This document shows, piece by piece, positions 35,467-63,712 of a stretch of 64,000 nt of DNA; within the stretch, counting starts at the first letter, position 1, and every line of letters starts with the position of its first letter. The notes beneath the pieces were generated by a model that made no database searches, was not told the DNA's origin, and saw nothing but the letters and a program-made list of their open reading frames with translations. A program made the translations under genes and the position numbers. This DNA is from Candidatus Magasanikbacteria bacterium CG10_big_fil_rev_8_21_14_0_10_36_32 (GTDB lineage: Bacteria > Patescibacteriota > Patescibacteriia > Magasanikbacterales > GWA2-37-8): assembly GCA_002778465.1 (NCBI GenBank), contig PFBV01000003.1, positions 2,397 through 66,396 on the forward strand, given 5' to 3'.

Positions 35467-35497
35467 CTTATGTGAAAGAACTGCTGTTAAGAAAACC

Positions 35498-35809
35498 TTA
35501 GATGTCGTCTTCGTCCTTGAAGAAACCGATGTTGTCGCAAGGACAAGCTTCGCGCTGTAAACGCTCTTGACGGTACTCGTGACAATAGGAACACTCTTCG
35601 GACGAAAGACACATGGCACCCAGATAGCCCTGCTTCTCTCGCTCAATACACCGCTTCTCAATGTCACTCCCATGCGATACCTCGTATACATGGCCAGCCA
35701 AACACTGAACGTTGTACGTGATATCCTCCTTGTTTTGCCTATTTTTAGTAAGACTTGATTGATTTTCCAAAGAACGGATTATTATATCATATTTTAAAAC
35801 TTTTGTCAA
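35498..35809 (-). CDS. small soluble Cys-rich protein (CxxC..CxC, acidic C-terminus) in a GC-rich island; start codon uncertain
   Basis: Protein-like frame ...CLSSEECSYCHEYRQERLQREACPCDNIGFFKDEDDI. GC and C-ending codons are far above genome background. A consensus promoter inside the annotated 5-prime end argues for a shorter product. Confidence 0.4.
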   Translation of the reverse strand: MTKVLKYDIIIRSLENQSSLTKNRQNKEDITYNVQCLAGHVYEVSHGSDIEKRCIEREKQGYLGAMCLSSEECSYCHEYRQERLQREACPCDNIGFFKDEDDI

Positions 35810-45207: not shown

Positions 45208-45236
45208 TTGACAAAACCTTCAAAATGTGCTATAAT
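45208..45236 (+). promoter_or_regulatory. consensus sigma70 promoter TTGACA-17-TATAAT (TG-extended) for small-protein family member A, followed by ~140-nt leader with twin mini-hairpins
   Basis: TTGACAaaaccttcaaaatgtgcTATAAT. The leader contains gcggtaaaacccgc and ccggtaaaaccgg, then the SD AAAGGAGA. Confidence 0.55.
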
Positions 45237-45382
45237 GGCAAGTTGTGAATAGATGGAAAACCTTGTTTTCTATATATGAACAACGCCGCCATTTCAAGAT
45301 TGGCTTATAACACTCTATTCTTTAACAAAATGCGGTAAAACCCGCAAAAACATCCGGTAAAACCGGACAAAGGAGACAAACA

Positions 45383-45700
45383 ATGGCACAGATGACGAAA
45401 AACGAATCGCGATTTTGTATCGTTATGCTGCTGGTGGTGTGGAGCGTCATAATGTTGGGTGTCGGCAGCTACACCAGACAGGGCGACCGTCTGAAACTCG
45501 ACAACAACGAAACCTACAACATCATCGCCATCGTGGACCCGGACGCTCCCGGCAATGTGGCGGAAATCGTCATTTCCGAAACAGACGATCCCAACGACCA
45601 CCACTTCGCCTACATCTACAAGGATTGTCTGAAATCCTACCACACGGGAGCCAACTACTTGCTCCAGCTGAGTACCCGCAATTGCATTTGGCTCCCCTGA
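45383..45700 (+). CDS. small membrane-anchored secreted-domain protein, family member A (two conserved Cys, C-terminal CIWLP)
   Basis: N-terminal TM RFCIVMLLVVWSVIMLGVG. C-domain YNIIAIVDPDAPGNVAEIVISETDDPNDHHFAYIYKDCLKSYHTGANYLLQLSTRNCIWLP. GC-rich with C-ending codons. Confidence 0.6.
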   Translation: MAQMTKNESRFCIVMLLVVWSVIMLGVGSYTRQGDRLKLDNNETYNIIAIVDPDAPGNVAEIVISETDDPNDHHFAYIYKDCLKSYHTGANYLLQLSTRNCIWLP

Positions 45701-45721
45701 CCAATCGTTCTTTCTAAAAAA

Positions 45722-45750
45722 TCAGCCCCGTCATTTGACGAGGCTTTTTC
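45722..45750 (+). terminator. intrinsic terminator of family member A (shared with member B)
   Basis: cagccccgtc-attt-gacgaggct followed by ttttt. Confidence 0.6.
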
Positions 45751-45760
45751 TTTTGTTTTC

Positions 45761-46493: not shown

Positions 46494-47330
46494 TTAATTT
46501 GCCGTAATTCTGCCGGACAATTGCTTTTGCATTTCTTGCAAATTATTTTTTATTAAAGCTTTTTGAATTTCTAAAGTATCCAATCCACCGGATTTAAAAG
46601 AAGATATTTTATTATTAACGACCATATCTTGAATAATACAATTTGAAATCCACGCTTGTTGCCAAACAGACGATTCTTGCCGAATAAAATTTTTAACCGT
46701 CTTTTTTCCTATTTTAAATTCTTCAATATCACTGTCGTTTATTTCAATAATTTCATTGGACGAAACAGATACTGTGCTATCCGCCAAATTATTTTCTTTT
46801 TCCGGATCAACCACGGTTAAGGCGGCTTTATTTTCCGCCACAACCAACAAAGTTTTTCCTTCTGAATATTCCACGCCAAAAGCCCCCACTTGACCAAACA
46901 CAACCGCGTTGTCAGTTTTTACTTCCCAAGATGAATCACCCGGCGAGCCCACTATTTTTGACCAAATTTGTCCGGTTTTAAGAATAATTTTCACTGCCAA
47001 TGCATTTTTTTTAAAATTAAAAACAGCTTTGTCCAATTCAATTTCTGTGTTGCCACCCAAACGAATTACTGAACCATTAGCTAAATAAATATTAGCTGAT
47101 TCGGACGATTCTGTTTTTAAAATAATCGGCGCCATTATTTCATCACCGCTATATATTTTACGACCCGTCATCGCTTCTTCAATACCATTGCCGGATGATG
47201 GGGCGAAAATTTCAATCCAATTTAAACCCTGTAAATTATTATCCGCCGGAGCATTAATCCGCCCGACATAGAAAAAAATACCGATTAAAACAGCAATGAA
47301 AACAAAAATATAAAATATTATTCTTCGCAT
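46494..47330 (-). CDS. FecR-domain-like membrane-anchored protein
   Basis: N-terminal TM. The beta-rich region ANIYLANGSVIRLGGNTEIEL ... WEVKTDNAVVFGQVGAFGVEY resembles FecR (PF04773). Confidence 0.4.
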   Translation of the reverse strand: MRRIIFYIFVFIAVLIGIFFYVGRINAPADNNLQGLNWIEIFAPSSGNGIEEAMTGRKIYSGDEIMAPIILKTESSESANIYLANGSVIRLGGNTEIELDKAVFNFKKNALAVKIILKTGQIWSKIVGSPGDSSWEVKTDNAVVFGQVGAFGVEYSEGKTLLVVAENKAALTVVDPEKENNLADSTVSVSSNEIIEINDSDIEEFKIGKKTVKNFIRQESSVWQQAWISNCIIQDMVVNNKISSFKSGGLDTLEIQKALIKNNLQEMQKQLSGRITAN

Positions 47331-47442
47331 AATTTTAAATATTCATCTTAACTTCTTATAAGTATTATATTACAAAAAACTATTTATTTCAACACTAAAA
47401 AATTAAAAACCCCGACCGAAGTCGAGGTTAAGAAAGAACAAA

Positions 47443-48624
47443 CTAAAAAGTCATCTCCAAGCCGAAACCGACATTGTGCAAATCAAACGTAAGATTATAC
47501 TCGTAAACAGCGCGCAAATGGAAACCGCGCAAGTTGGCGGACAATCCAGCCGTGATGAAATCATTGGCGCGAAAAAACATATCATTTTCACCGTGAATGT
47601 AACCGAATTGCGGTGAAATACTGAATTTGTCATTGCCCAATGTATAAAGCGTTCCGATTTGCCAAGTCAATCCATCCTGCAAATTTTCAAAATCGGTTCC
47701 TAATTTCCAACTATCTTTTCCTAAAACATGCAACGGAGTCACTACCGTTCCGACTGAAAATCGAGGATTTTCAGATTGCGAATCACCGTTATACCAAACG
47801 GTGCCGAAATTTTCTGCTGTCACTGCCAGTCTGGCATCTAAAATCGGATCATGAAAAGCGACAGTGGAAGATAAATCAACAGCAAAACCAATTCCGGATA
47901 AACAATTGAAATCAGGCGTCTGCAAAGCGTTTTCAAACGTGGCAAGACCGAGATGTCCGTTAAATCTAACGGCGGTTTTTGGCGATAACCAACGATGCAT
48001 TACTCGACCCTGAACGCCAGCTGACAATTCAATGCCCAACGGCAATTCAAACATACGAGTGTATCCAATCAATCCGCCGATGTCGGAACGAATCGCTATG
48101 GCAGCGATATCCGGTGTGCCGGAAAAATCAACATAACTGTTAATACCATCATGAACGACAGGCAGCGGGGATGTATCCAATGGAGCATTGTGAATAACGA
48201 CATCATTTTCATTGTAAGCGCCAACCGTCAGTCGGCCGATTTTTTTTGTTCCCCAAGAAATGCGAAATGGTTCAACGCGAGCGCGCAAACCAAAATTCAT
48301 TGTCGGTCTTTTGTTGACTGCTATGATAGCGGCCAAAGAATTTCCGGCATTGAACATATCCGAATACAAATCAATCGCATCATCGGATTCCGTCCAATTA
48401 CCAATCACATCCAAATTAAAAACAGAAAATTTCCAACCTTCTGTTGAAGAAATAACATTTGACAAAATACGGCTGTCCAAAGTCAAATCTACTCCGCCCA
48501 GTCCGCGATATTCCAGCGACTCAATTTTTCTGATTTCTCCAGAATCCGCTGAAACATTCGTCACTCCAAAAAAGACGGCAATCGCAATAACCATGGTCAA
48601 ATACCTAAACATTTTATACTCCAC
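47443..48624 (-). CDS. secreted beta-barrel-like protein ending in C-terminal Phe (OMP-like signature)
   Basis: Signal peptide MFRYLTMVIAIAVFFGVTNVSA. Amphipathic beta strands alternate, with many Gly and aromatic residues. The C-terminus is ...HNVGFGLEMTF. Confidence 0.4.
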   Translation of the reverse strand: MEYKMFRYLTMVIAIAVFFGVTNVSADSGEIRKIESLEYRGLGGVDLTLDSRILSNVISSTEGWKFSVFNLDVIGNWTESDDAIDLYSDMFNAGNSLAAIIAVNKRPTMNFGLRARVEPFRISWGTKKIGRLTVGAYNENDVVIHNAPLDTSPLPVVHDGINSYVDFSGTPDIAAIAIRSDIGGLIGYTRMFELPLGIELSAGVQGRVMHRWLSPKTAVRFNGHLGLATFENALQTPDFNCLSGIGFAVDLSSTVAFHDPILDARLAVTAENFGTVWYNGDSQSENPRFSVGTVVTPLHVLGKDSWKLGTDFENLQDGLTWQIGTLYTLGNDKFSISPQFGYIHGENDMFFRANDFITAGLSANLRGFHLRAVYEYNLTFDLHNVGFGLEMTF

Positions 48625-48820
48625 ATCTAAGGCAATTTTGCCTCTTTGGTTATCAAATGACTTTAATTGTTAAAGAACTTACCTAATGTATCCATATCAT
48701 AAAATATAAATGCTGTCAATCAATTGTCACAAACTATAAATTAAAAATTCAATTTCATAATCTCCTGATAATTCGTAATTTATAATTTTTTATTTACCTA
48801 AAATTAGCTAAACTAAAGTA

Positions 48821-48907: not shown

Positions 48908-49222
48908 ATGAAACACAGTATGCGTTCGCTGATTGTCGCTTGCGTAATCTACTTTTTATTCGGAATGACCGTGGGAAGCATTCTCGGAACCAACGGGGTT
49001 GAGGGCCGCTCAACCGAACTTGAAGACGGAAGATATGAACTCATCAATGTCGTCGGCGCCGACCCGATTGATCAAAGTCGAACCGAAGTGGTGGTAAAAG
49101 AAAACAACGAGTTCAATATTCACCGATTCGTGACTATGACGCCGGAATGTTTCAACAACTACAACGACGGCGACAAGGTTTTGGTTGTGATCAATGACTG
49201 GTGTTACTGGCTCAGAGAATAA
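48908..49222 (+). CDS. small membrane-anchored protein, family member C
   Basis: SD AAGGAGA at 5 nt spacing. TM LIVACVIYFLFGMTVGSILG. C-domain YELINVVGADPIDQSRTEVVVKENNEFNIHRFVTMTPECFNNYNDGDKVLVVINDWCYWL. GC-rich. Confidence 0.55.
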   Translation: MKHSMRSLIVACVIYFLFGMTVGSILGTNGVEGRSTELEDGRYELINVVGADPIDQSRTEVVVKENNEFNIHRFVTMTPECFNNYNDGDKVLVVINDWCYWLRE

Positions 49223-49299
49223 TTTTTCATTAAACATCCGCAATCTCTCCGCCAGATATCCATCCACATTGTTCTTTCCTGTCTATTTAGGACAAAACA

Positions 49300-49322
49300 A
49301 CCCCGCATTAATGCGGGGTTTT
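49300..49322 (+). terminator. intrinsic terminator of family member C
   Basis: aaccccgcat-taat-gcggggtttt. Confidence 0.55.
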
Positions 49323-49355: not shown

Positions 49356-49422
49356 TAAGATGCTCTTTTAAATTAAACTCAGGGTTTTAAAAACACAAAA
49401 ATAAAAAAGGAAGGAAAAAGGG

Positions 49423-49764
49423 ATGAAAGATTTTTTGTTTATGATAAGTGCTTGGGTTATTGGTATTATGACGGGAGCACTTATTTTTTTTTCGTCGCAT
49501 AACACAGGCAAAAGTTTGCAACTTAGCACTGGCAACTACAATATTGTTCACATCATGGATAAGTCCGAAGATATCAGCGAACCAAGACAAGAACTGCTCG
49601 TGTCCACTATGAATAACCCGACTAAACATCTCTTTGTGACAGTGTCCGAAAAATGCTTCGCCAGCTACTTTGCCGGCGCTGAACTTCTAATTATAAATAA
49701 CGACGACTCGTGCATCTGGACGACCACCCGACGTCCACCATCACCCGAATTTGATATACCGTAA
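49423..49764 (+). CDS. small membrane-anchored protein, family member D
   Basis: SD AAGGAAGGAAAAAGGG. TM ISAWVIGIMTGALIFF. C-domain YNIVHIMDKSEDISEPRQELLVSTMNNPTKHLFVTVSEKCFASYFAGAELLIINNDDSCIWT. The 3-prime half is GC-rich. Confidence 0.55.
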   Translation: MKDFLFMISAWVIGIMTGALIFFSSHNTGKSLQLSTGNYNIVHIMDKSEDISEPRQELLVSTMNNPTKHLFVTVSEKCFASYFAGAELLIINNDDSCIWTTTRRPPSPEFDIP

Positions 49765-49784
49765 ATATCGTTCTTTTTCTCATC

Positions 49785-49812
49785 AGCCTCACACAAAATG
49801 TGAGGCTTTTTA
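49785..49812 (+). terminator. intrinsic terminator of family member D
   Basis: agcctcaca-caaaa-tgtgaggct followed by ttttt. Confidence 0.55.
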
Positions 49813-51975: not shown

Positions 51976-52010
51976 AAAAAACTCCCGACAAAAGTTGGGA
52001 GTATTTTTTT
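51976..52010 (-). terminator. bidirectional intrinsic terminator downstream of the Cys-rich small-protein pair, followed by a partial 29-nt direct repeat copy (52028-52056)
   Basis: Hairpin actcccgac-aaaa-gttgggagt with a T-run. The sequence aaagttgggagtatttttttaacaaaaaa is repeated. Confidence 0.5.
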
Positions 52011-52061
52011 AACAAAAAAGAATAGTAAAGTTGGGAGTATTTTTTTAACAAAAAAAATAGT

Positions 52062-52301
52062 TCAGGATCTAGCGAACAATTCCTTGAAATCACGATAAGC
52101 GGACCAAAGACCGAACAAACAAATAAAAATTACGCAAATCGCGACAATGCACGCAGACACTGTGCCCAAACAAGCAATATAAATAGCTAAACCGCACATC
52201 ACGGACATTCCCACCCACACCAAGCAAGTAATTATGAAAACGATGATCCTGACGCATGACGACTTGTTACAACAATTATTTTTAATTTGATTCATCGTCA
52301 T
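52062..52301 (-). CDS. Cys-rich small 2-TM membrane protein (79 aa, 11 Cys), translationally coupled to upstream ORF
   Basis: MTMNQIKNNCCNKSSCVRIIVFIITCLVWVGMSVMCGLAIYIACLGTVSACIVAICVIFICLFGLW. Its start overlaps the stop of 52282-52602. Confidence 0.45.
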   Translation of the reverse strand: MTMNQIKNNCCNKSSCVRIIVFIITCLVWVGMSVMCGLAIYIACLGTVSACIVAICVIFICLFGLWSAYRDFKELFARS

Positions 52302-52602
52302 TTTCTCTCATTTCCTGTTCAATTTTTTTCAACAAAGCTTCCCAGCCTTCCATTTTCAGAATAATTAAACGGCTGTTTATAATTTGGAAATTTTTATAAA
52401 ACCGAAACGTACCATAAGCATTAAGCGTGCAACACACGCCACAACATACCATTTCAAACCAGTCGTTGGAATTATAATTATTCAAACACCACCGAAAACA
52501 AGCGGCCGCGACAACAGTGCAAAAAATCATTCCCGCTACGACACCAACTTGACATAAATGAAGGGACTTTCTAATTTTTTCCGTCCTTTCATCTTTTTCC
52601 AT
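52282..52602 (-). CDS. Cys-rich small membrane protein (106 aa, 10 Cys)
   Basis: LHLCQVGVVAGMIFCTVVAAACFRWC ... MVCCGVCCTLNAYG. SD GAAAGGAA lies upstream, with a promoter repeat at 52665-52712. Confidence 0.45.
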   Translation of the reverse strand: MEKDERTEKIRKSLHLCQVGVVAGMIFCTVVAAACFRWCLNNYNSNDWFEMVCCGVCCTLNAYGTFRFYKNFQIINSRLIILKMEGWEALLKKIEQEMRENDDESN

Positions 52603-52664: not shown

Positions 52665-52712
52665 TTGTTAATGAACTGCTTTATATATAACAAATTTAAA
52701 CAAAAAAGTCAA
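52665..52712 (-). promoter_or_regulatory. 48-nt promoter-containing direct repeat, copy 1 (TTGACT-17-TATATA on the minus strand), driving the Cys-rich small-protein pair
   Basis: Identical to 53556-53603 apart from the flanks. The reverse complement is TTGACTtttttgtttaaatttgtTATATAtaaagcagttcattaacaa. Confidence 0.5.
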
Positions 52713-52752: not shown

Positions 52753-52775
52753 AAAAGAACAAATTAACAAAAAAA

Positions 52776-53387
52776 TTAACCGATTTTATCGTCATCCGTA
52801 AACGACAAATCGGACGATTTAATATCAAATGACACATTCATATCCAAAGCCGCTTGGGCCAGCTTTGCAAACTCTTCATTTTGCATGATTTTGTCCGTTT
52901 GGGACTTTTCCAATATGTAATCATGAATCTCACAAGAAAAATTCCAAATTACGTGCAACGCCAGCGGTATCCAAATTGTCTGCAATAAAATTCCCACCAC
53001 ACAACTAATAATTCCAAATAACAACATCGGTATCATCAGGGCAAACTTATAAATTATTTTTTTCTCATCTTTAAAGTTATACCAATGCAAACCGCTGAAT
53101 ATGACACTGGAAATAATAATGGCAATTCCGGCGACAACGGTTAACTCGGAAAAGAAAAAAATAATCGGCAAACGAAAAACCATTTCTTCGCCAGTGGGTC
53201 CAATAACGCAAGCTTCCATGCCGTCATTCAACCAATACATCTTGAAAAAATTTTTATAAAACCATTTGGCATTGCCGCATTTCTTGCTATATAATTTATT
53301 TGCCGCCGCCCTAACCAATGCCGCAAAAATTATAATCACAATAAGAATTAAAAACGGTGGTAAAAATTCAATAAATCTTTCCAACAT
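52776..53387 (-). CDS. CPBP-family intramembrane glutamic endopeptidase (CAAX protease/Abi-type bacteriocin-immunity-like)
   Basis: Motif 1 EExxxR (GEEMVFRLPI), motif 2 FxxxH (FSGLHWYN), motif 3 HxxxN (HVIWNF). 6 TM. Confidence 0.7.
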   Translation of the reverse strand: MLERFIEFLPPFLILIVIIIFAALVRAAANKLYSKKCGNAKWFYKNFFKMYWLNDGMEACVIGPTGEEMVFRLPIIFFFSELTVVAGIAIIISSVIFSGLHWYNFKDEKKIIYKFALMIPMLLFGIISCVVGILLQTIWIPLALHVIWNFSCEIHDYILEKSQTDKIMQNEEFAKLAQAALDMNVSFDIKSSDLSFTDDDKIG

Positions 53388-53555: not shown

Positions 53556-53603
53556 TTGTTAATGAACTGCTTTATATATAACAAATTTAAACAAAAAAGT
53601 CAA
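53556..53603 (-). promoter_or_regulatory. 48-nt promoter-containing direct repeat, copy 2, driving the CPBP protease gene via a ~165-nt leader
   Basis: Same 48-nt sequence as 52665-52712. The leader is GC-richer and potentially structured. SD AGGAGA lies 8 nt before the ATG at 53387. Confidence 0.5.
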
Positions 53604-58072: not shown

Positions 58073-58145
58073 ATTTATATATTATATTGCTTTATTATAA
58101 CACAGATAAACTATTTCTTTCCATCTTTTAACCGCTTTTCCGCTA

Positions 58146-58174
58146 TTGACACAACACTCAAAATGTATTATCTT
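58146..58174 (+). promoter_or_regulatory. sigma70-like promoter TTGACA-17-TATCTT for family member B (homologous to the member A promoter)
   Basis: TTGACAcaacactcaaaatgtatTATCTT. The spacer ..caaaatgt.. is shared with member A. It places the real start at ATG 58234, not the ORF-track start 58177. Confidence 0.45.
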
Positions 58175-58233
58175 AATTGAAAATTGCTCTTTTGAGCCAC
58201 TGCGGTCTGAAAGACCAAAAAGGAGAAATAACA

Positions 58234-58587
58234 ATGGAAGAGACTGTGGCGGAAAAAAATAAAGAGGAAGAGAAAGATCCTCACTCCGGATGGTGGATTT
58301 CTATATGCGGTATTATCATTTTTCTGCTCGGCCTTATGCTGGGGACGTTTATATGCCTAGGCGACAGCGAAACGCTTGGAAGCACAGACACCGGCGATGT
58401 CTACAACTTCATCGCTTTCGTGGATAAGAACGCTCCCAACGGCACAGTGGAGGCGGTCATTTCCGACACTGACGATCCTGACGATCATCATTTCATCTCT
58501 ATGACCAAAAAGTGCGCCGCCACTTACCACAAAGGCGCCCGTTACGTTCTCGTCGTGAACTTGAACAAATGCATCTGGCTCCCCTGA
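58234..58587 (+). CDS. small membrane-anchored protein, family member B (closest to A)
   Basis: SD AAAGGAGA. TM WWISICGIIIFLLGLMLGTFICL. C-domain YNFIAFVDKNAPNGTVEAVISDTDDPDDHHFISMTKKCAATYHKGARYVLVVNLNKCIWLP. GC-rich. Confidence 0.6.
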   Translation: MEETVAEKNKEEEKDPHSGWWISICGIIIFLLGLMLGTFICLGDSETLGSTDTGDVYNFIAFVDKNAPNGTVEAVISDTDDPDDHHFISMTKKCAATYHKGARYVLVVNLNKCIWLP

Positions 58588-58609
58588 CCAATCGTTCTTT
58601 CTAAAAAAT

Positions 58610-58637
58610 CAGCCCCGTCATTTGACGGGGCTTTTTA
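58610..58637 (+). terminator. intrinsic terminator of family member B (near-identical to the member A terminator)
   Basis: cagccccgtc-attt-gacggggct followed by ttttt. The 65-nt block 58563-58637 nearly matches 45676-45750. Confidence 0.6.
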
Positions 58638-58638
58638 T

Positions 58639-59367
58639 TTATATTTTCATCAAACTTAAAACAATTGTTTCACTATTTTTCTTTTTCTTTCCAAAACGAT
58701 CATAATATTCTATTTTTATTTTTTTAAATCCGGCGGATTTTGCCAAACTTTTTAATTCATCGGCGGTAAAATAATGTAAATATCTCATTACTTCTTTTCC
58801 TCGTGTCCCCTTCCATGGCACGCAGACATCGCCGCTATCATATCCGTCGGAAATTTTTTTTAATTGATTTTTAATATCATATTTTTTACAAGCCCATTTT
58901 TCAAGCAAATTCCAACTGGTTATCACCGCTTTGCTGCCGGTTTTTAAAACGCGAAAAATTTCTTTTAAAAATTTTTCTCTCAATTCAACGGATGGTATAT
59001 GATGGATAACGGCAAAAGAAAAAATAAAATCAAATTGATTTTTTTTAAAAGGCAAATCAACGGCATCAGCAACAAAAAATTTAGCTTTTTTATTTTTTAT
59101 ATTCACAACATTTTTTTTCTTGGCTTCCATAATCAATTTTACTGAAATATCCGACCCAAAATAACGACCACCGCGCTTAATCGCCTCGTCAGCCATTAAA
59201 CCATTGCCACAACCAATATCAAGAACACTAAAACCTTTTGCAATATTCCTTAATAATTTTATTTTAATTAAAGATGGTATAGACCGGCTAATATTCCACT
59301 CCTTGGCAATGATATTGTAATTTCTTCTGGTTTCGCTTATAATGCTTAAAGCTTTTCGTTTTTCCAT
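58639..59367 (-). CDS. class I SAM-dependent methyltransferase (Methyltransf_11 type)
   Basis: Motif I VLDIGCGNGLMADEAIKRGG. Motif post-I GSDIS. 242 aa. Confidence 0.65.
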   Translation of the reverse strand: MEKRKALSIISETRRNYNIIAKEWNISRSIPSLIKIKLLRNIAKGFSVLDIGCGNGLMADEAIKRGGRYFGSDISVKLIMEAKKKNVVNIKNKKAKFFVADAVDLPFKKNQFDFIFSFAVIHHIPSVELREKFLKEIFRVLKTGSKAVITSWNLLEKWACKKYDIKNQLKKISDGYDSGDVCVPWKGTRGKEVMRYLHYFTADELKSLAKSAGFKKIKIEYYDRFGKKKKNSETIVLSLMKI

Positions 59368-62395: not shown

Positions 62396-62402
62396 AATAA
62401 AA

Positions 62403-62609
62403 TTATTCGCATTTCTGGCCAAAACACTTTTTTATTTGGCATTTTAATTTTTCAAAGAAACTTCCTTTTCCGCAACAAGTTTGTTCACTTGTAACATTGG
62501 CGGCAACCGGCGCGGCTGGCTGATTTTCAACCACTGGCGGAGTGTCATTGATTACCGGCGAGGTGTCGTTAACCACTGGCGGGGTTGTCGGAGCATTTTG
62601 CTGTTCCAT
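62403..62609 (-). CDS. small Pro/Val-rich protein with cationic Cys-loop C-terminal tail (paralogous to the C-terminus of the adjacent 348-aa protein)
   Basis: C-terminus CCGKGSFFEKLKCQIKKCFGQKCE versus the neighbour LLEKIKCQIKKFFGKECT. The 3-prime ~60 nt of the two genes are homologous. Confidence 0.4.
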   Translation of the reverse strand: MEQQNAPTTPPVVNDTSPVINDTPPVVENQPAAPVAANVTSEQTCCGKGSFFEKLKCQIKKCFGQKCE

Positions 62610-62665
62610 AGTTTTAAAATTAAAATTAATTAATATTCTTTAATACATTATACACCTAAATGAAA

Positions 62666-63712
62666 TTATGTACACTCTTTGCCAAAAAACTTTTTTATTT
62701 GGCATTTTATTTTTTCCAATAAACTTTCTTGTTTAACCGAATCCGTTTTAACCGCCATATCCTCTTCTGCCGCGACCGGATGATTAATAACCGCCGGAGT
62801 CGGACAATTCACTCCGCCGGAAATCAAACCTATTTTACAGCCAAAATTTTTAAACCTTAATTTTATATAATCCCAAAGATTTTGATTATCCATCAAATAA
62901 GGAACATAAGGCAAGGTGGTGGAAACATCAGCCACTGACTGATTAAGTCGGTCGCAAATGCGATTACCCACAAACGTCCAATAACGCGCGCGGGTTTTTT
63001 CTTTCATTTCAGAATAATCATCACGCAATTTGATTTTTTTATCATATTCATCAAATTCATTAATCGTCGTTCGGAATTGGCTGAAAATCCAGCCGTGTTT
63101 AACATCTTCAGTATTATTCAAACACATAAACAAACCGGTCATTTCAATCCACTTATCATCATTCATTCCATCAATAATAGCGTCAGCGACAGCGCAATTT
63201 CCGGAAACAACCAATTCATTGTATTTATCTTCGTAACGCTTATTCATTTCTTCAATATTCCAGTCTGCCTGCATTGCTTCATCTCCGGAAGTTTTAAAAT
63301 TTGTCTGCCACGCGTAAGCGGCATATTCAGCCGATGTTACCCCAAATTGCGACATAATGGCATTAGTCTGTTCTTTATCAACCACAGCCTCATTCACACA
63401 GCGGAGACGGGCGGTAATTTCCACCCAAATCTCAGGGGTCATTTTTCCACTGCCGGCGGTTAAAAATTTTTTCGCTTGTTCAGCTGTTTGTTGCGTGTTT
63501 TTTATCACTTCAGCGTTATTCATCATCATTTTACCCAAATCAACCGCTCCCCGAACAGTTCCGGTGACACTAACTTGCCGATTATTATTTCCAATATTTA
63601 ACAACTTCTCTTTGATTAAATCCATCGGATTCTGCGCGGCGGAAACAAAATCAACTGACACAAAACATACGCTAAAGACAATAAAAAAAATAACGATTGT
63701 TTTTTTAAACAT
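62666..63712 (-). CDS. secreted hypothetical protein (348 aa) with signal peptide and cationic Cys-loop C-terminal tail
   Basis: Signal peptide MFKKTIVIFFIVFSVCFVSVDFVSA. 8 Cys. The C-terminal EKIKCQIKKFFGKECT is shared with the adjacent small ORF. Confidence 0.5.
   Translation of the reverse strand: MFKKTIVIFFIVFSVCFVSVDFVSAAQNPMDLIKEKLLNIGNNNRQVSVTGTVRGAVDLGKMMMNNAEVIKNTQQTAEQAKKFLTAGSGKMTPEIWVEITARLRCVNEAVVDKEQTNAIMSQFGVTSAEYAAYAWQTNFKTSGDEAMQADWNIEEMNKRYEDKYNELVVSGNCAVADAIIDGMNDDKWIEMTGLFMCLNNTEDVKHGWIFSQFRTTINEFDEYDKKIKLRDDYSEMKEKTRARYWTFVGNRICDRLNQSVADVSTTLPYVPYLMDNQNLWDYIKLRFKNFGCKIGLISGGVNCPTPAVINHPVAAEEDMAVKTDSVKQESLLEKIKCQIKKFFGKECT

Follow-up and report, generated by a model that had tools for sequence, protein, structure and literature searches.

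The DNA analysed here (referred to as the window) comprises 64,000 nt of a 513-kb contig from Candidatus Magasanikbacteria bacterium CG10_big_fil_rev, a member of the Candidate Phyla Radiation (CPR). It harbours four genes of one small protein family, A to D (Table 1), each with its own promoter and terminator; the number of four, as proposed in an earlier note on this DNA, was confirmed by tblastn. The element of interest is a near-identical block at the 3’ ends of A and B, two paralogs whose coding bodies are strongly diverged. Together with the flanks (~2.4 kb left and ~5.7 kb right) ~72 kb of the genome were read. A HMMER scan of 1.84 billion cluster representatives yielded only eight further genuine relatives, all small and of the same design. 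The contigs of all eight were retrieved and compared, resulting in a comparative set of ~12 loci, mostly contigs of <2 kb, and none of the genomes in this set carries orthologs of both A and B. Relatives and loci from this set are designated P0005, L009 and so on.

Table 1. Positions of the genes and sequence elements considered in this study (window coordinates).
Feature	Position	Strand	Details
Gene A	45383..45700	+	105 aa, paralog of B
Gene B, COU29_00985	58234..58587	+	117 aa
Gene C	48908..49222		family paralog
Gene D, COU29_00930	49423..49764		family paralog
Box half in A	45689..45719	+	core TCGTTCTTT at 45705-45713
Box half in B	58576..58606	+	TGG CTC CCC TGA + CCAATCGTTCTTTCTAAAA; core TCGTTCTTT at 58592-58600; predicted single-stranded
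Terminator half in A	45720..45750	+	stem 45724-45745, C.A mismatch from G-to-A at 45741
Terminator half in B	58607..58637	+	A-tract, stem AGCCCCGTC/GACGGGGCT 58611-58632, loop ATTT, T-tract
3’ box variant of C	49269..49277	+	TTGTTCTTT within GTTCTTTCCTGTCT; 47 nt past stop, before terminator 49301-49318
3’ box of D	49768..49776	+	TCGTTCTTT; terminator GCCTCACA/TGTGAGGC 49786-49806, T-tract; element 49768..49811
5’ leader box of B	58186..58197	+	GCTCTTTTGAGC, core GCTCTTT
5’ leader box of D	49362..49368	+	GCTCTTT, 6 nt past -10 hexamer
3’ box of gene E	35475..35481	-	GTTCTTT; before terminator GGCCACTG..CGGTGGC
5’ box of gene E	~35777-35767	-	CCGTTCTTTGG; behind family-class promoter at 35809
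3’ box of 393-aa ORF 47443..48624(-)	47433..47439	-	GTTCTTT within TTTGTTCTTTCTTAA, directly past stop
Leader box of 393-aa ORF	48672-48678	-	
3’ box of Rce1/CPBP-like gene 52776..53387(-)	52754..52760	-	GTTCTTT, before its terminator
Box as RNA for putative reader			CCAAUCGUUCUUUCUAAAA
Promoter of A	45208..45236	+	TTGACA-N17-TATAAT, 12/12, TG extended -10
Promoter of B	58146..58174	+	TTGACA 58146-58151, 17-nt spacer caacactcaaaatgtat, TATCTT 58169-58174; consensus scan 10/12
75-nt unit copy in leader of A	45236..45310	+	first 75 nt past the -10 hexamer of A
Leader hairpin of B	58204..58216	+	GGTCT-GAA-AGACC, then A-rich Shine-Dalgarno sequence AAAAAGGAG; AAGGAG 58220-58225; element 58204..58225

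Genes A and B share a near-identical 3’ block

A and B are exactly identical over 52 nt (45689-45740 = 58576-58627), for which 100 shuffles gave no match. A gapless repeat search extends the similarity to 45679-45753 versus 58566-58640 with 95% identity (71/75). Within the 66-nt string 58571-58636 there are two substitutions compared to A, namely T/C at 45684/58571, which is synonymous (ATT/ATC), and A/G at 45741/58628. This matches the end of ~65 nt with about two substitutions that the earlier note had described, with its start at 58563 placed slightly too early. In the 48 non-coding nt 3’ of the stop codon A and B differ at one position. In contrast, the alignment shows 50-70% nucleotide identity 5’ of the block and only noise in the N-terminal third, so that the N-termini are not alignable, as anticipated, and identity is not uniform along the gene. 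For the C-terminal domain (62 codons) protein identity amounts to 53% (33/62) instead of the ~60% given previously, with a proportion of synonymous differences (pS) of 0.56, a synonymous rate (dS) of 1.04-1.12 and a non-synonymous rate (dN) of 0.41-0.47. A recent duplication followed by fast protein divergence was also considered for A and B and is ruled out by synonymous sites near saturation.

An assembly artefact is excluded because independent contigs are 100% identical to both regions: region 58080-58700 around B is found in three contigs (ENA, JGI and Logan assemblies) and the region of A in one JGI contig. Likewise, every retrieved strain contig is 100% identical to the window.

Could the block be a generic terminator or a mobile or dispersed repeat, similar to repetitive extragenic palindromes or miniature inverted-repeat transposable elements, with no relation to the family? 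Hairpin-containing repeats are common, and assemblies break at another repeat near the homolog of the promoter of A. Nevertheless the chance for this explanation is close to negligible. The ~72 kb contain two copies only, both joined to the last codons of homologous genes, and neither flank holds a further block or family member. An exact 24-mer of the block had no match in genome and metagenome contig collections, a weak result since the source contig is absent from both. Moreover ~10 other clear intrinsic terminators of the window differ in sequence and lack the box described below. Hence the box is not a general feature of terminators.

The 5’ half of the block is conserved across genomes

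The comparison with P0005, a relative from another metagenome with different flanks and higher GC content, divides the block into two halves. The first one, termed box half, consists of the last four codons with the stop, plus 19 nt further 3’ (TGGCTCCCCTGA CCAATCGTTCTTTCTAAAA). It is identical at 31/31 positions in A, B and P0005, which carries TGGCTCCCCTGA-CCAATCGTTCTTTCTAAAA followed by a different terminator (CCCCCGAC-TTCG-GTCGGGGG). Synonymous sites of B and P0005 are 55% identical, against which the 19 non-coding nt of the box half alone give P=2e-4 (dS is 0.68 for B-P0005 and 1.04 for A-B). Because P0005 belongs to another genome, conversion within one genome cannot account for this identity. 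Even P0007, for which dS is saturated compared to A and B, still exhibits TCGTTCTTTTTTAAAAAATCAGCCCCG, in which TCGTTCTTT..AAAAAATCAGCCCCG is kept.

The core G-Y-TCTTT is located 3’ of the stop codon in most family members of the other sampled genomes, and the 3’ form can be written as T-Y-G-Y-TCTTT-Y-Y. Variants are TCGTTCTTTTTC in D and P0006, TCGTTCTTTAA in P0013, TTGCTCTTTTT in P0009 and G[TC]TCTTTCCTGTC, which C has in common with L007 and L006; these two loci also share GYTCTTTCCTGTC with C. Within the window the exact sequence TCGTTCTTT occurs three times in 128 kb of strand, each time just past A, D or B. The intergenic DNA (5.4 kb) contains 13 occurrences of the motif G[CT]TCTTT versus 1.7 expected (~8-fold; 0/2000 shuffles reach 13).

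In all of the 11 3’ untranslated regions (UTRs) that were folded the box is predicted to be unpaired, with a distance of 2-13 nt to the hairpin on its 3’ side. Its reading frame relative to the stop codon differs among the members, thus the box is not coding. Read-through, a selenocysteine insertion sequence or coding of the post-stop sequence were ruled out for the same reason and by differing stop codons (TGA and TAA). A further candidate, an extracytoplasmic function (ECF)-type promoter antisense to the box, was rejected as well, as inspection by eye gave no plausible -10 element. Searches of the block, the leader of A and its 75-nt unit against Rfam revealed no family match; solely a tRNA passes, while the block reaches 20-26 bits compared to gathering scores of 40-50. 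Taken together, the conservation across genomes indicates that the box half is under purifying selection as a putative cis-regulatory box which is described in no library.

The box recurs in 5’ leaders and at unrelated genes

Nearly every member, including those from several genomes, also has a core of the form G/A-Y-TCTTT in its predicted 5’ leader, in most cases 3-12 nt past the -10 hexamer. The leaders of B and of P0009 from another genome have 13 nt (GCTCTTTTGAGCC) exactly in common. Furthermore, the box is situated before the terminators of three neighbours unrelated to the family, i.e. gene E, a 393-aa open reading frame (ORF) and a Rce1/CPBP-like gene (Table 1). The leader element of the 393-aa gene (TAGGTAAGTTCTTTAACAA..GTCATTTGA) is conserved in L010. 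Every box assigned to the UTR of a gene lies on the sense strand of that gene. Since the core is found at both mRNA ends of the family and at no fewer than three unrelated neighbours, our interpretation is that it serves as cis-element of a small regulon, which at present is a prediction from sequence.

Gene E is a small Cys-rich ORF (35498..~35720, minus strand) with ~73 aa past a Shine-Dalgarno (SD) sequence AAGGAGG (~35729) and is unrelated to A-D. A canonical start codon at suitable distance from the SD is missing; its GC content at third codon positions (GC3) is 0.58. It exhibits a family-class promoter (TTGACAaaagttttaaaatatgaTATAAT), the 3’ box (AGTTCTTTCA) and a terminator. In another genome, at L013 (780-806), the gene that follows P0013 is preceded by a promoter of the same class (aaaatgtgcTATGAT), with GTTCTTTTAAAA located 4 nt past the -10 hexamer.

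The 3’ half of the block has a different history

The terminator half is composed of an A-tract, a GC hairpin of 8-9 bp and a T-tract. The hairpin of B has a 9-pair stem followed by TTTTT (ΔG -19.0 kcal/mol) and qualifies as an intrinsic terminator. Because of the A-tract upstream it is called on both strands in the terminator scan; it faces a convergent methyltransferase gene ending at 58639. The hairpin of A reaches -11.7 kcal/mol only, its stem being weakened by the uncompensated G-to-A change at 45741. Across A, B, P0005, P0007 and D, 97% of the stem cells are paired compared to 34-54% in slid controls, and the change in A represents the only unpaired cell. Double-sided (compensatory) changes are found in 4/7 pairs, i.e. 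the structure is conserved rather than the sequence.

Between B and P0005 the terminator half is identical at 18/30 sites, the same as synonymous sites (P=0.81). A and B match at 29/30 sites (P=2e-6 versus A-B synonymous sites; P=0.001 versus B-P0005, with one outgroup genome). The segment is discordant with its flanks, as a dS of 1.04 in the C-terminal domain stands against one difference in the 48 nt past the stop. The positional ortholog of A, P0009, differs in both box variant and terminator. As the coding sequences of A and B are no closer to each other (dS 1.04) than those of B and P0005 (dS 0.68), a recent short conversion is the best explanation for the additional identity of the A and B terminators. 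Judged from these comparisons the terminator half was probably converted recently between A and B. The selected 31-nt box could have supplied the homology for this event, whereas between genomes the terminator half would drift freely through compensatory changes.

The earlier note had offered gene conversion and, alternatively, strong constraint on the gene ends. Each applies to one half of the block: conversion is the better interpretation for the terminator half, which diverges between B and P0005 like synonymous sites, and fails for the box half, whose identity extends to another genome, where constraint applies. We therefore regard the A/B block as a composite of a selected box half and a probably converted terminator half, a view that we hold with moderate confidence. 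By contrast, the description of a dispersed and actively homogenised multigene family went too far. C and D show no near-identical block compared to A or B, all coding bodies of the family are at or near saturation, and ~72 kb of the genome contain no more copies of the block.

The same data bear on two simpler histories. If selection acted alone, the whole 3’ UTR of 66-75 nt (box, A-tract and exact hairpin) would be one functional RNA without any conversion. P0007 shares TCGTTCTTT..AAAAAATCAGCCCCG with A and B at saturated dS, D shares ATCAGCC...GGCTTTTT, and a tract of ≤66 nt is a poor substrate for recombination (PMC5485169). However, B and P0005 differ at 12/30 sites of the terminator half, corresponding to the synonymous rate, in all other lineages the loop and two pairs of the stem are different, and the uncompensated mismatch in A is unexpected under site-by-site selection. 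We thus consider selection alone rather unlikely, albeit worth keeping in mind. Conversion or homogenisation alone, with a block devoid of own function, was the leading interpretation of the earlier note. It would agree with the sharp identity breakpoint against a coding dS of ~1, with other near-identical regulatory blocks in the genome and with the high GC3 of the family (0.46-0.74 versus 0.26-0.42), which would fit GC-biased conversion. For the box half it is contradicted by the 31/31 identity with P0005, and it leaves unexplained why other genomes have the box in their D-like and C-like genes and why it is found in unrelated genes. Accordingly, this explanation appears very improbable.

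Several points weigh against the composite view and the box behind it. RecA-type conversion is a processive reaction that diverged sequence blocks, and at a tract of ≤66 nt within diverged DNA it is inefficient (PMC5485169). The identity flanking the putative tract, i.e. the 31-nt box half upstream and the T-tract downstream, is short compared to the tuf model system. P0007 has AAAAAATCAGCCCCG, the A-tract and the 5’ arm of the stem in common with A and B; the terminator half may thus in part be ancestral and selected. The topology (A,(B,P0005)) rests on 62 codons and is a weak tree. The comparative sample is small, the 7-mer core carries limited information and some leader boxes are degenerate (ATTCTTT, GTTATTT, GTTCATT). 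Finally, the transcription start sites (~58181 for B and ~45243 for A), the 3’ ends (58637 and 45750) and the transcription of the genes itself are predictions.

Known examples of conversion between paralogs are tufA/tufB of Salmonella and the rRNA operons (PMC5485169, PMC8022953). As in these systems, one segment of the paralogs is far more similar than the remaining sequence and the cross-genome comparison predict. Unlike here, conversion in tuf and rRNA genes acts on long, near-identical genes, whereas the tract considered is ≤66 nt at the 3’ end of genes with ~45-55% identity.

Promoters and leaders of the family

The promoters of A and B match at 22/29 positions (counted by eye). A shared promoter of the form TTGACA-MAA-N4-TYAAAAT-RTR-N-TATAAT precedes A-D and E, is found in an array in the left flank and occurs at P0006 and P0009 in other genomes; the other TTGACA promoters of the window lack the shared spacer. 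It represents a conserved promoter class that extends to other genomes and to an unrelated gene. The homology of the two promoters claimed before thus stands in the sense of one class; they are neither near-identical nor a converted block. ATG 58234 was confirmed as the real start of B by AAGGAG at 58220-58225 (8 nt upstream) and by the public annotation of 117 aa. TTG 58177, the start in the ORF list, is located just past the -10 hexamer (58169-58174) and is not the start of B.

Hairpins equivalent to the leader hairpin of B are located 5’ of the SD in P0006, P0008, P0009, P0011 and A. In the minimum free energy fold of the whole leader of B, however, the region 58204..58225 pairs differently. 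In most family leaders across genomes a small hairpin is situated directly 5’ of a long A-rich SD (AAAAAGGAG) with differing stems, e.g. GCGG-UCUGAAA-CCGC, GGUCU-GAA-AGACC or CCGG-UAAAA-CCGG (58204-58216, 45331-45369; L007, L009, L010, L012). Sequestration of the SD by the leader box was considered and dismissed, since it appears in the folds of D and P0006 only and is inconsistent.

The promoter of A together with the first 75 nt of its 140-nt leader (45208-45310) is 89% identical to L014 (13818-13976), ~2.3 kb left of the window. At L014 an A-type promoter is followed by tandem repeats of the 75-nt unit (TGGCAAGTTGTGAATAAAGGGAAAACCATGTTTTCTATATATGAGCAACGCCGTCATTTCAAGTTTTACTTATAA), which contains a strong hairpin; two independent assemblies end there. 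A second near-identical regulatory block in front of different genes is a 48-nt exact repeat (55 nt at 96%) at 52665-52712 and 53556-53603, which on the minus strand represents a promoter with leader (TTGACTtttttgtttaaatttgtTATATAtaaagcaGTTCATTAACAA). It precedes the CPBP/Rce1-like gene 52776..53387 and a 106-aa ORF (52282..52602).

Two further repeats were observed. One, 72 nt long with 82% identity (62396-62467 and 62659-62730), spans the 3’ ends of two neighbouring ORFs on the minus strand. Of these ORFs (62403..62609, 68 aa; 62666..63712, 348 aa) the shorter one may be a duplicated C-terminal fragment. The other is a tandem 36-nt duplication (AAAGTTGGGAGTATTTTTTTAACAAAAAA x2, 51991-52061) downstream of a 79-aa ORF (52062..52301, minus strand), overlapping the terminator region of this ORF.

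A fast-evolving protein family

The structure of B was predicted with AlphaFold2 (mean of the predicted local distance difference test 85). The model shows an N-terminal transmembrane (TM) helix and a beta domain of five strands, which holds a C-x-W motif and the two Cys that are invariant in the family. Proteins A-D gave no Pfam hit at E≤1, no match in NCBIfam and a best E of 0.13 against the PDB by sequence. Foldseek of the B model against the PDB likewise ended at a best E of 0.13, with small beta-barrel look-alikes only. Pattern searches with the A4 alignment yielded 190 and 73 matches, none of which is a true relative.

The neighbouring genes are ordinary chromosomal ones, including FolD, SHMT, an Elp3-like radical-SAM enzyme, a HAD hydrolase and a Trp/Tyr permease. 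Synteny with other genomes is evident at two loci. P0009 (L009) is the positional ortholog of A, with a convergent HAD gene beyond that is 79% identical to the one of the window. L006 is syntenic with the C/D locus by two tandem members, a 292-aa gene and a permease with 85% identity, and L010 and L007 are syntenic with C/D as well. Family proteins at syntenic positions are 29-46% identical to those of the window. Their dN (0.3-0.6) is far above that of neighbouring genes (0.09-0.14) at similar dS, hence the family evolves fast.

Despite its position (L009 282-760 versus window 45383-45760) P0009 is 29-36% identical to A. It forms a CEWIP subtype together with P0007, while A groups with B and P0005. 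This suggests that the family member at the A/P0009 locus was replaced in one lineage.

GC3 of A-D and E is 0.46-0.74 compared to 0.26-0.42 in the other measured genes (0.49 in one 79-aa ORF; ribosomal protein L25 0.26), and cytosine at third codon positions amounts to 0.27-0.49 versus 0.08-0.23. In other genomes, too, the family genes are GC-richer than the surrounding loci. Candidate causes for the raised GC3 are selection at the mRNA level and GC-biased conversion.

A gene with a FecR domain (anti-sigma-like) is located at 46494-47330 on the minus strand between A and the 393-aa gene, and at L012 (125-658) the family member P0011 has a gene for an ECF-type sigma factor upstream of it in divergent orientation. 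Both genes may link the family to envelope-stress signalling.

How the box could be read

We propose that the box would be read in single-stranded form by a trans-acting factor, next to the leader hairpin and SD on one side of the mRNA and next to the terminator hairpin on the other. Binding of such a factor would tune translation, read-through of the terminator or stability of the 3’ end. Chaperones and antiterminators of the Csp type are known to act in a single-stranded context beside hairpins. A single-strand binder with a cold-shock domain is our favoured candidate for the reader. The cold-shock domain prefers heptamers of the type x-T-C-T-T-T-x with an obligatory C, and CspB of B. subtilis, for which GTCTTTG/T and TTCTTTT are the preferred sequences, has a pocket for cytosine at position 3 (PMC1904285). 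The box cores TTCTTTC/T and CTCTTTT agree with the pattern T2, C3, T4-T6 and are predicted to be unpaired. The box thus resembles CspB sites in the core with an invariant C between Ts and in the single-stranded position beside hairpins. It differs by an extra pyrimidine between G and TCTTT and by a conserved TCG/CCAATCG extension, and binding in this case is putative. A further point against our interpretation is that a cold-shock domain signature (KGFGFI/VFVHF type) was not found in a six-frame scan of the 64-kb window.

On this basis one may think of a regulon specific to this Magasanikbacteria lineage, in which a bipartite single-stranded G-Y-UCUUU box, located in the leader and before the terminator, would be recognised by a dedicated RNA-binding factor that co-controls fast-evolving small envelope proteins. 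Its members would be the TM + C-x-W family, the Cys-rich peptide, the 393-aa protein and the CPBP protease, and the box would in addition serve as homology island for the copying of regulatory ends. We put this forward tentatively, as a possibility that is more doubtful than the composite history of the block.

Three other modes of action were weighed. The box could be the seed of a small RNA (sRNA) derived from the 3’ UTR, which includes the terminator of the mRNA, is released by processing and pairs with purine-rich targets such as SD regions. The architecture fits, as an unpaired conserved stretch is followed, past a spacer, by the terminator hairpin with its U-tail, and sRNAs of this kind characteristically show a 3’ UTR whose conservation exceeds that of synonymous sites (PMC9438474). 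But the best duplex among 60 initiation regions of the window (-14.4 kcal/mol) hardly differs from the best of shuffled seeds (-12.8 +/- 1.7), and a seed does not explain the core in 5’ leaders. Compared to sRNAs of the CpxQ, NarS and SdhX type (PMC9438474, PMC7821165), the conserved single-stranded stretch past the stop followed by the own terminator is similar, as is the conservation of the box above synonymous sites of the upstream coding sequence. Different are the presence of the core in 5’ leaders and in several genes, the CPR host and the lack of an Rfam match, and a processed RNA, targets and a role of Hfq/ProQ are hypothetical here. We judge an sRNA function to be improbable.

About equally improbable is a NusG-type pause, in which TTNTTT in the non-template strand halts RNA polymerase ~6 nt downstream, in the leader and before the terminator. 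TTCTTT fits the motif -11 TTNTTT -6 (PMC11602163), and for B the pause is predicted at ~58605, just before the hairpin. In B. subtilis NusG pauses are strand-specific and ~300/1600 are located in leaders (PMC11602163, PMC8060035). The box is similar as a T-rich sense-strand motif in leaders and near terminators with TTCTTT as literal match. Nonetheless the pause motif requires neither a C in place of the ‘N’, which is invariant in the box, nor the conserved upstream TCG/CCAATCG, and the GCTCTTT variants (leaders of B, D and P0009; 3’ UTRs of P0009 and P0011) break the first T. In addition, promotion of pausing by the NusG of this lineage is an assumption.

Last, the 3’ UTR might act as described for icaR of Staphylococcus aureus (PMC3868564), where the box or UCCCCUG (in the codons for Leu-Pro-stop) would pair with the SD region of the same mRNA and block translation. 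In A, B and P0005 CUCCCCUGA indeed holds the UCCCCUG motif described for icaR, and the leaders have long purine-rich SD regions, so that a pyrimidine-rich 3’ UTR motif and a strong SD are common to both systems. Yet the predicted duplexes with the own leader are no better than shuffles in 7/8 mRNAs (z -1.1 to +1.2), with C (z = -2.2) as the only exception, and P0007, P0009 and D are devoid of UCCCCUG. This mechanism is hence highly unlikely. Among the modes of action considered, we favour a single-strand binder of the cold-shock type.

Implications

To our knowledge almost nothing is known about gene regulation in the CPR/Patescibacteria, whose members are uncultivated. The box of ~11 nt, which is better conserved than the proteins it flanks, provides a concrete cis-element in a CPR lineage. 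The A/B block furthermore illustrates that one conserved block can join selection on one half with recent conversion of the other, and that only cross-genome comparison separates the two. Should the box be bound by an RNA chaperone or regulator, the post-transcriptional regulon defined by it could be recognised in metagenomes from sequence alone.

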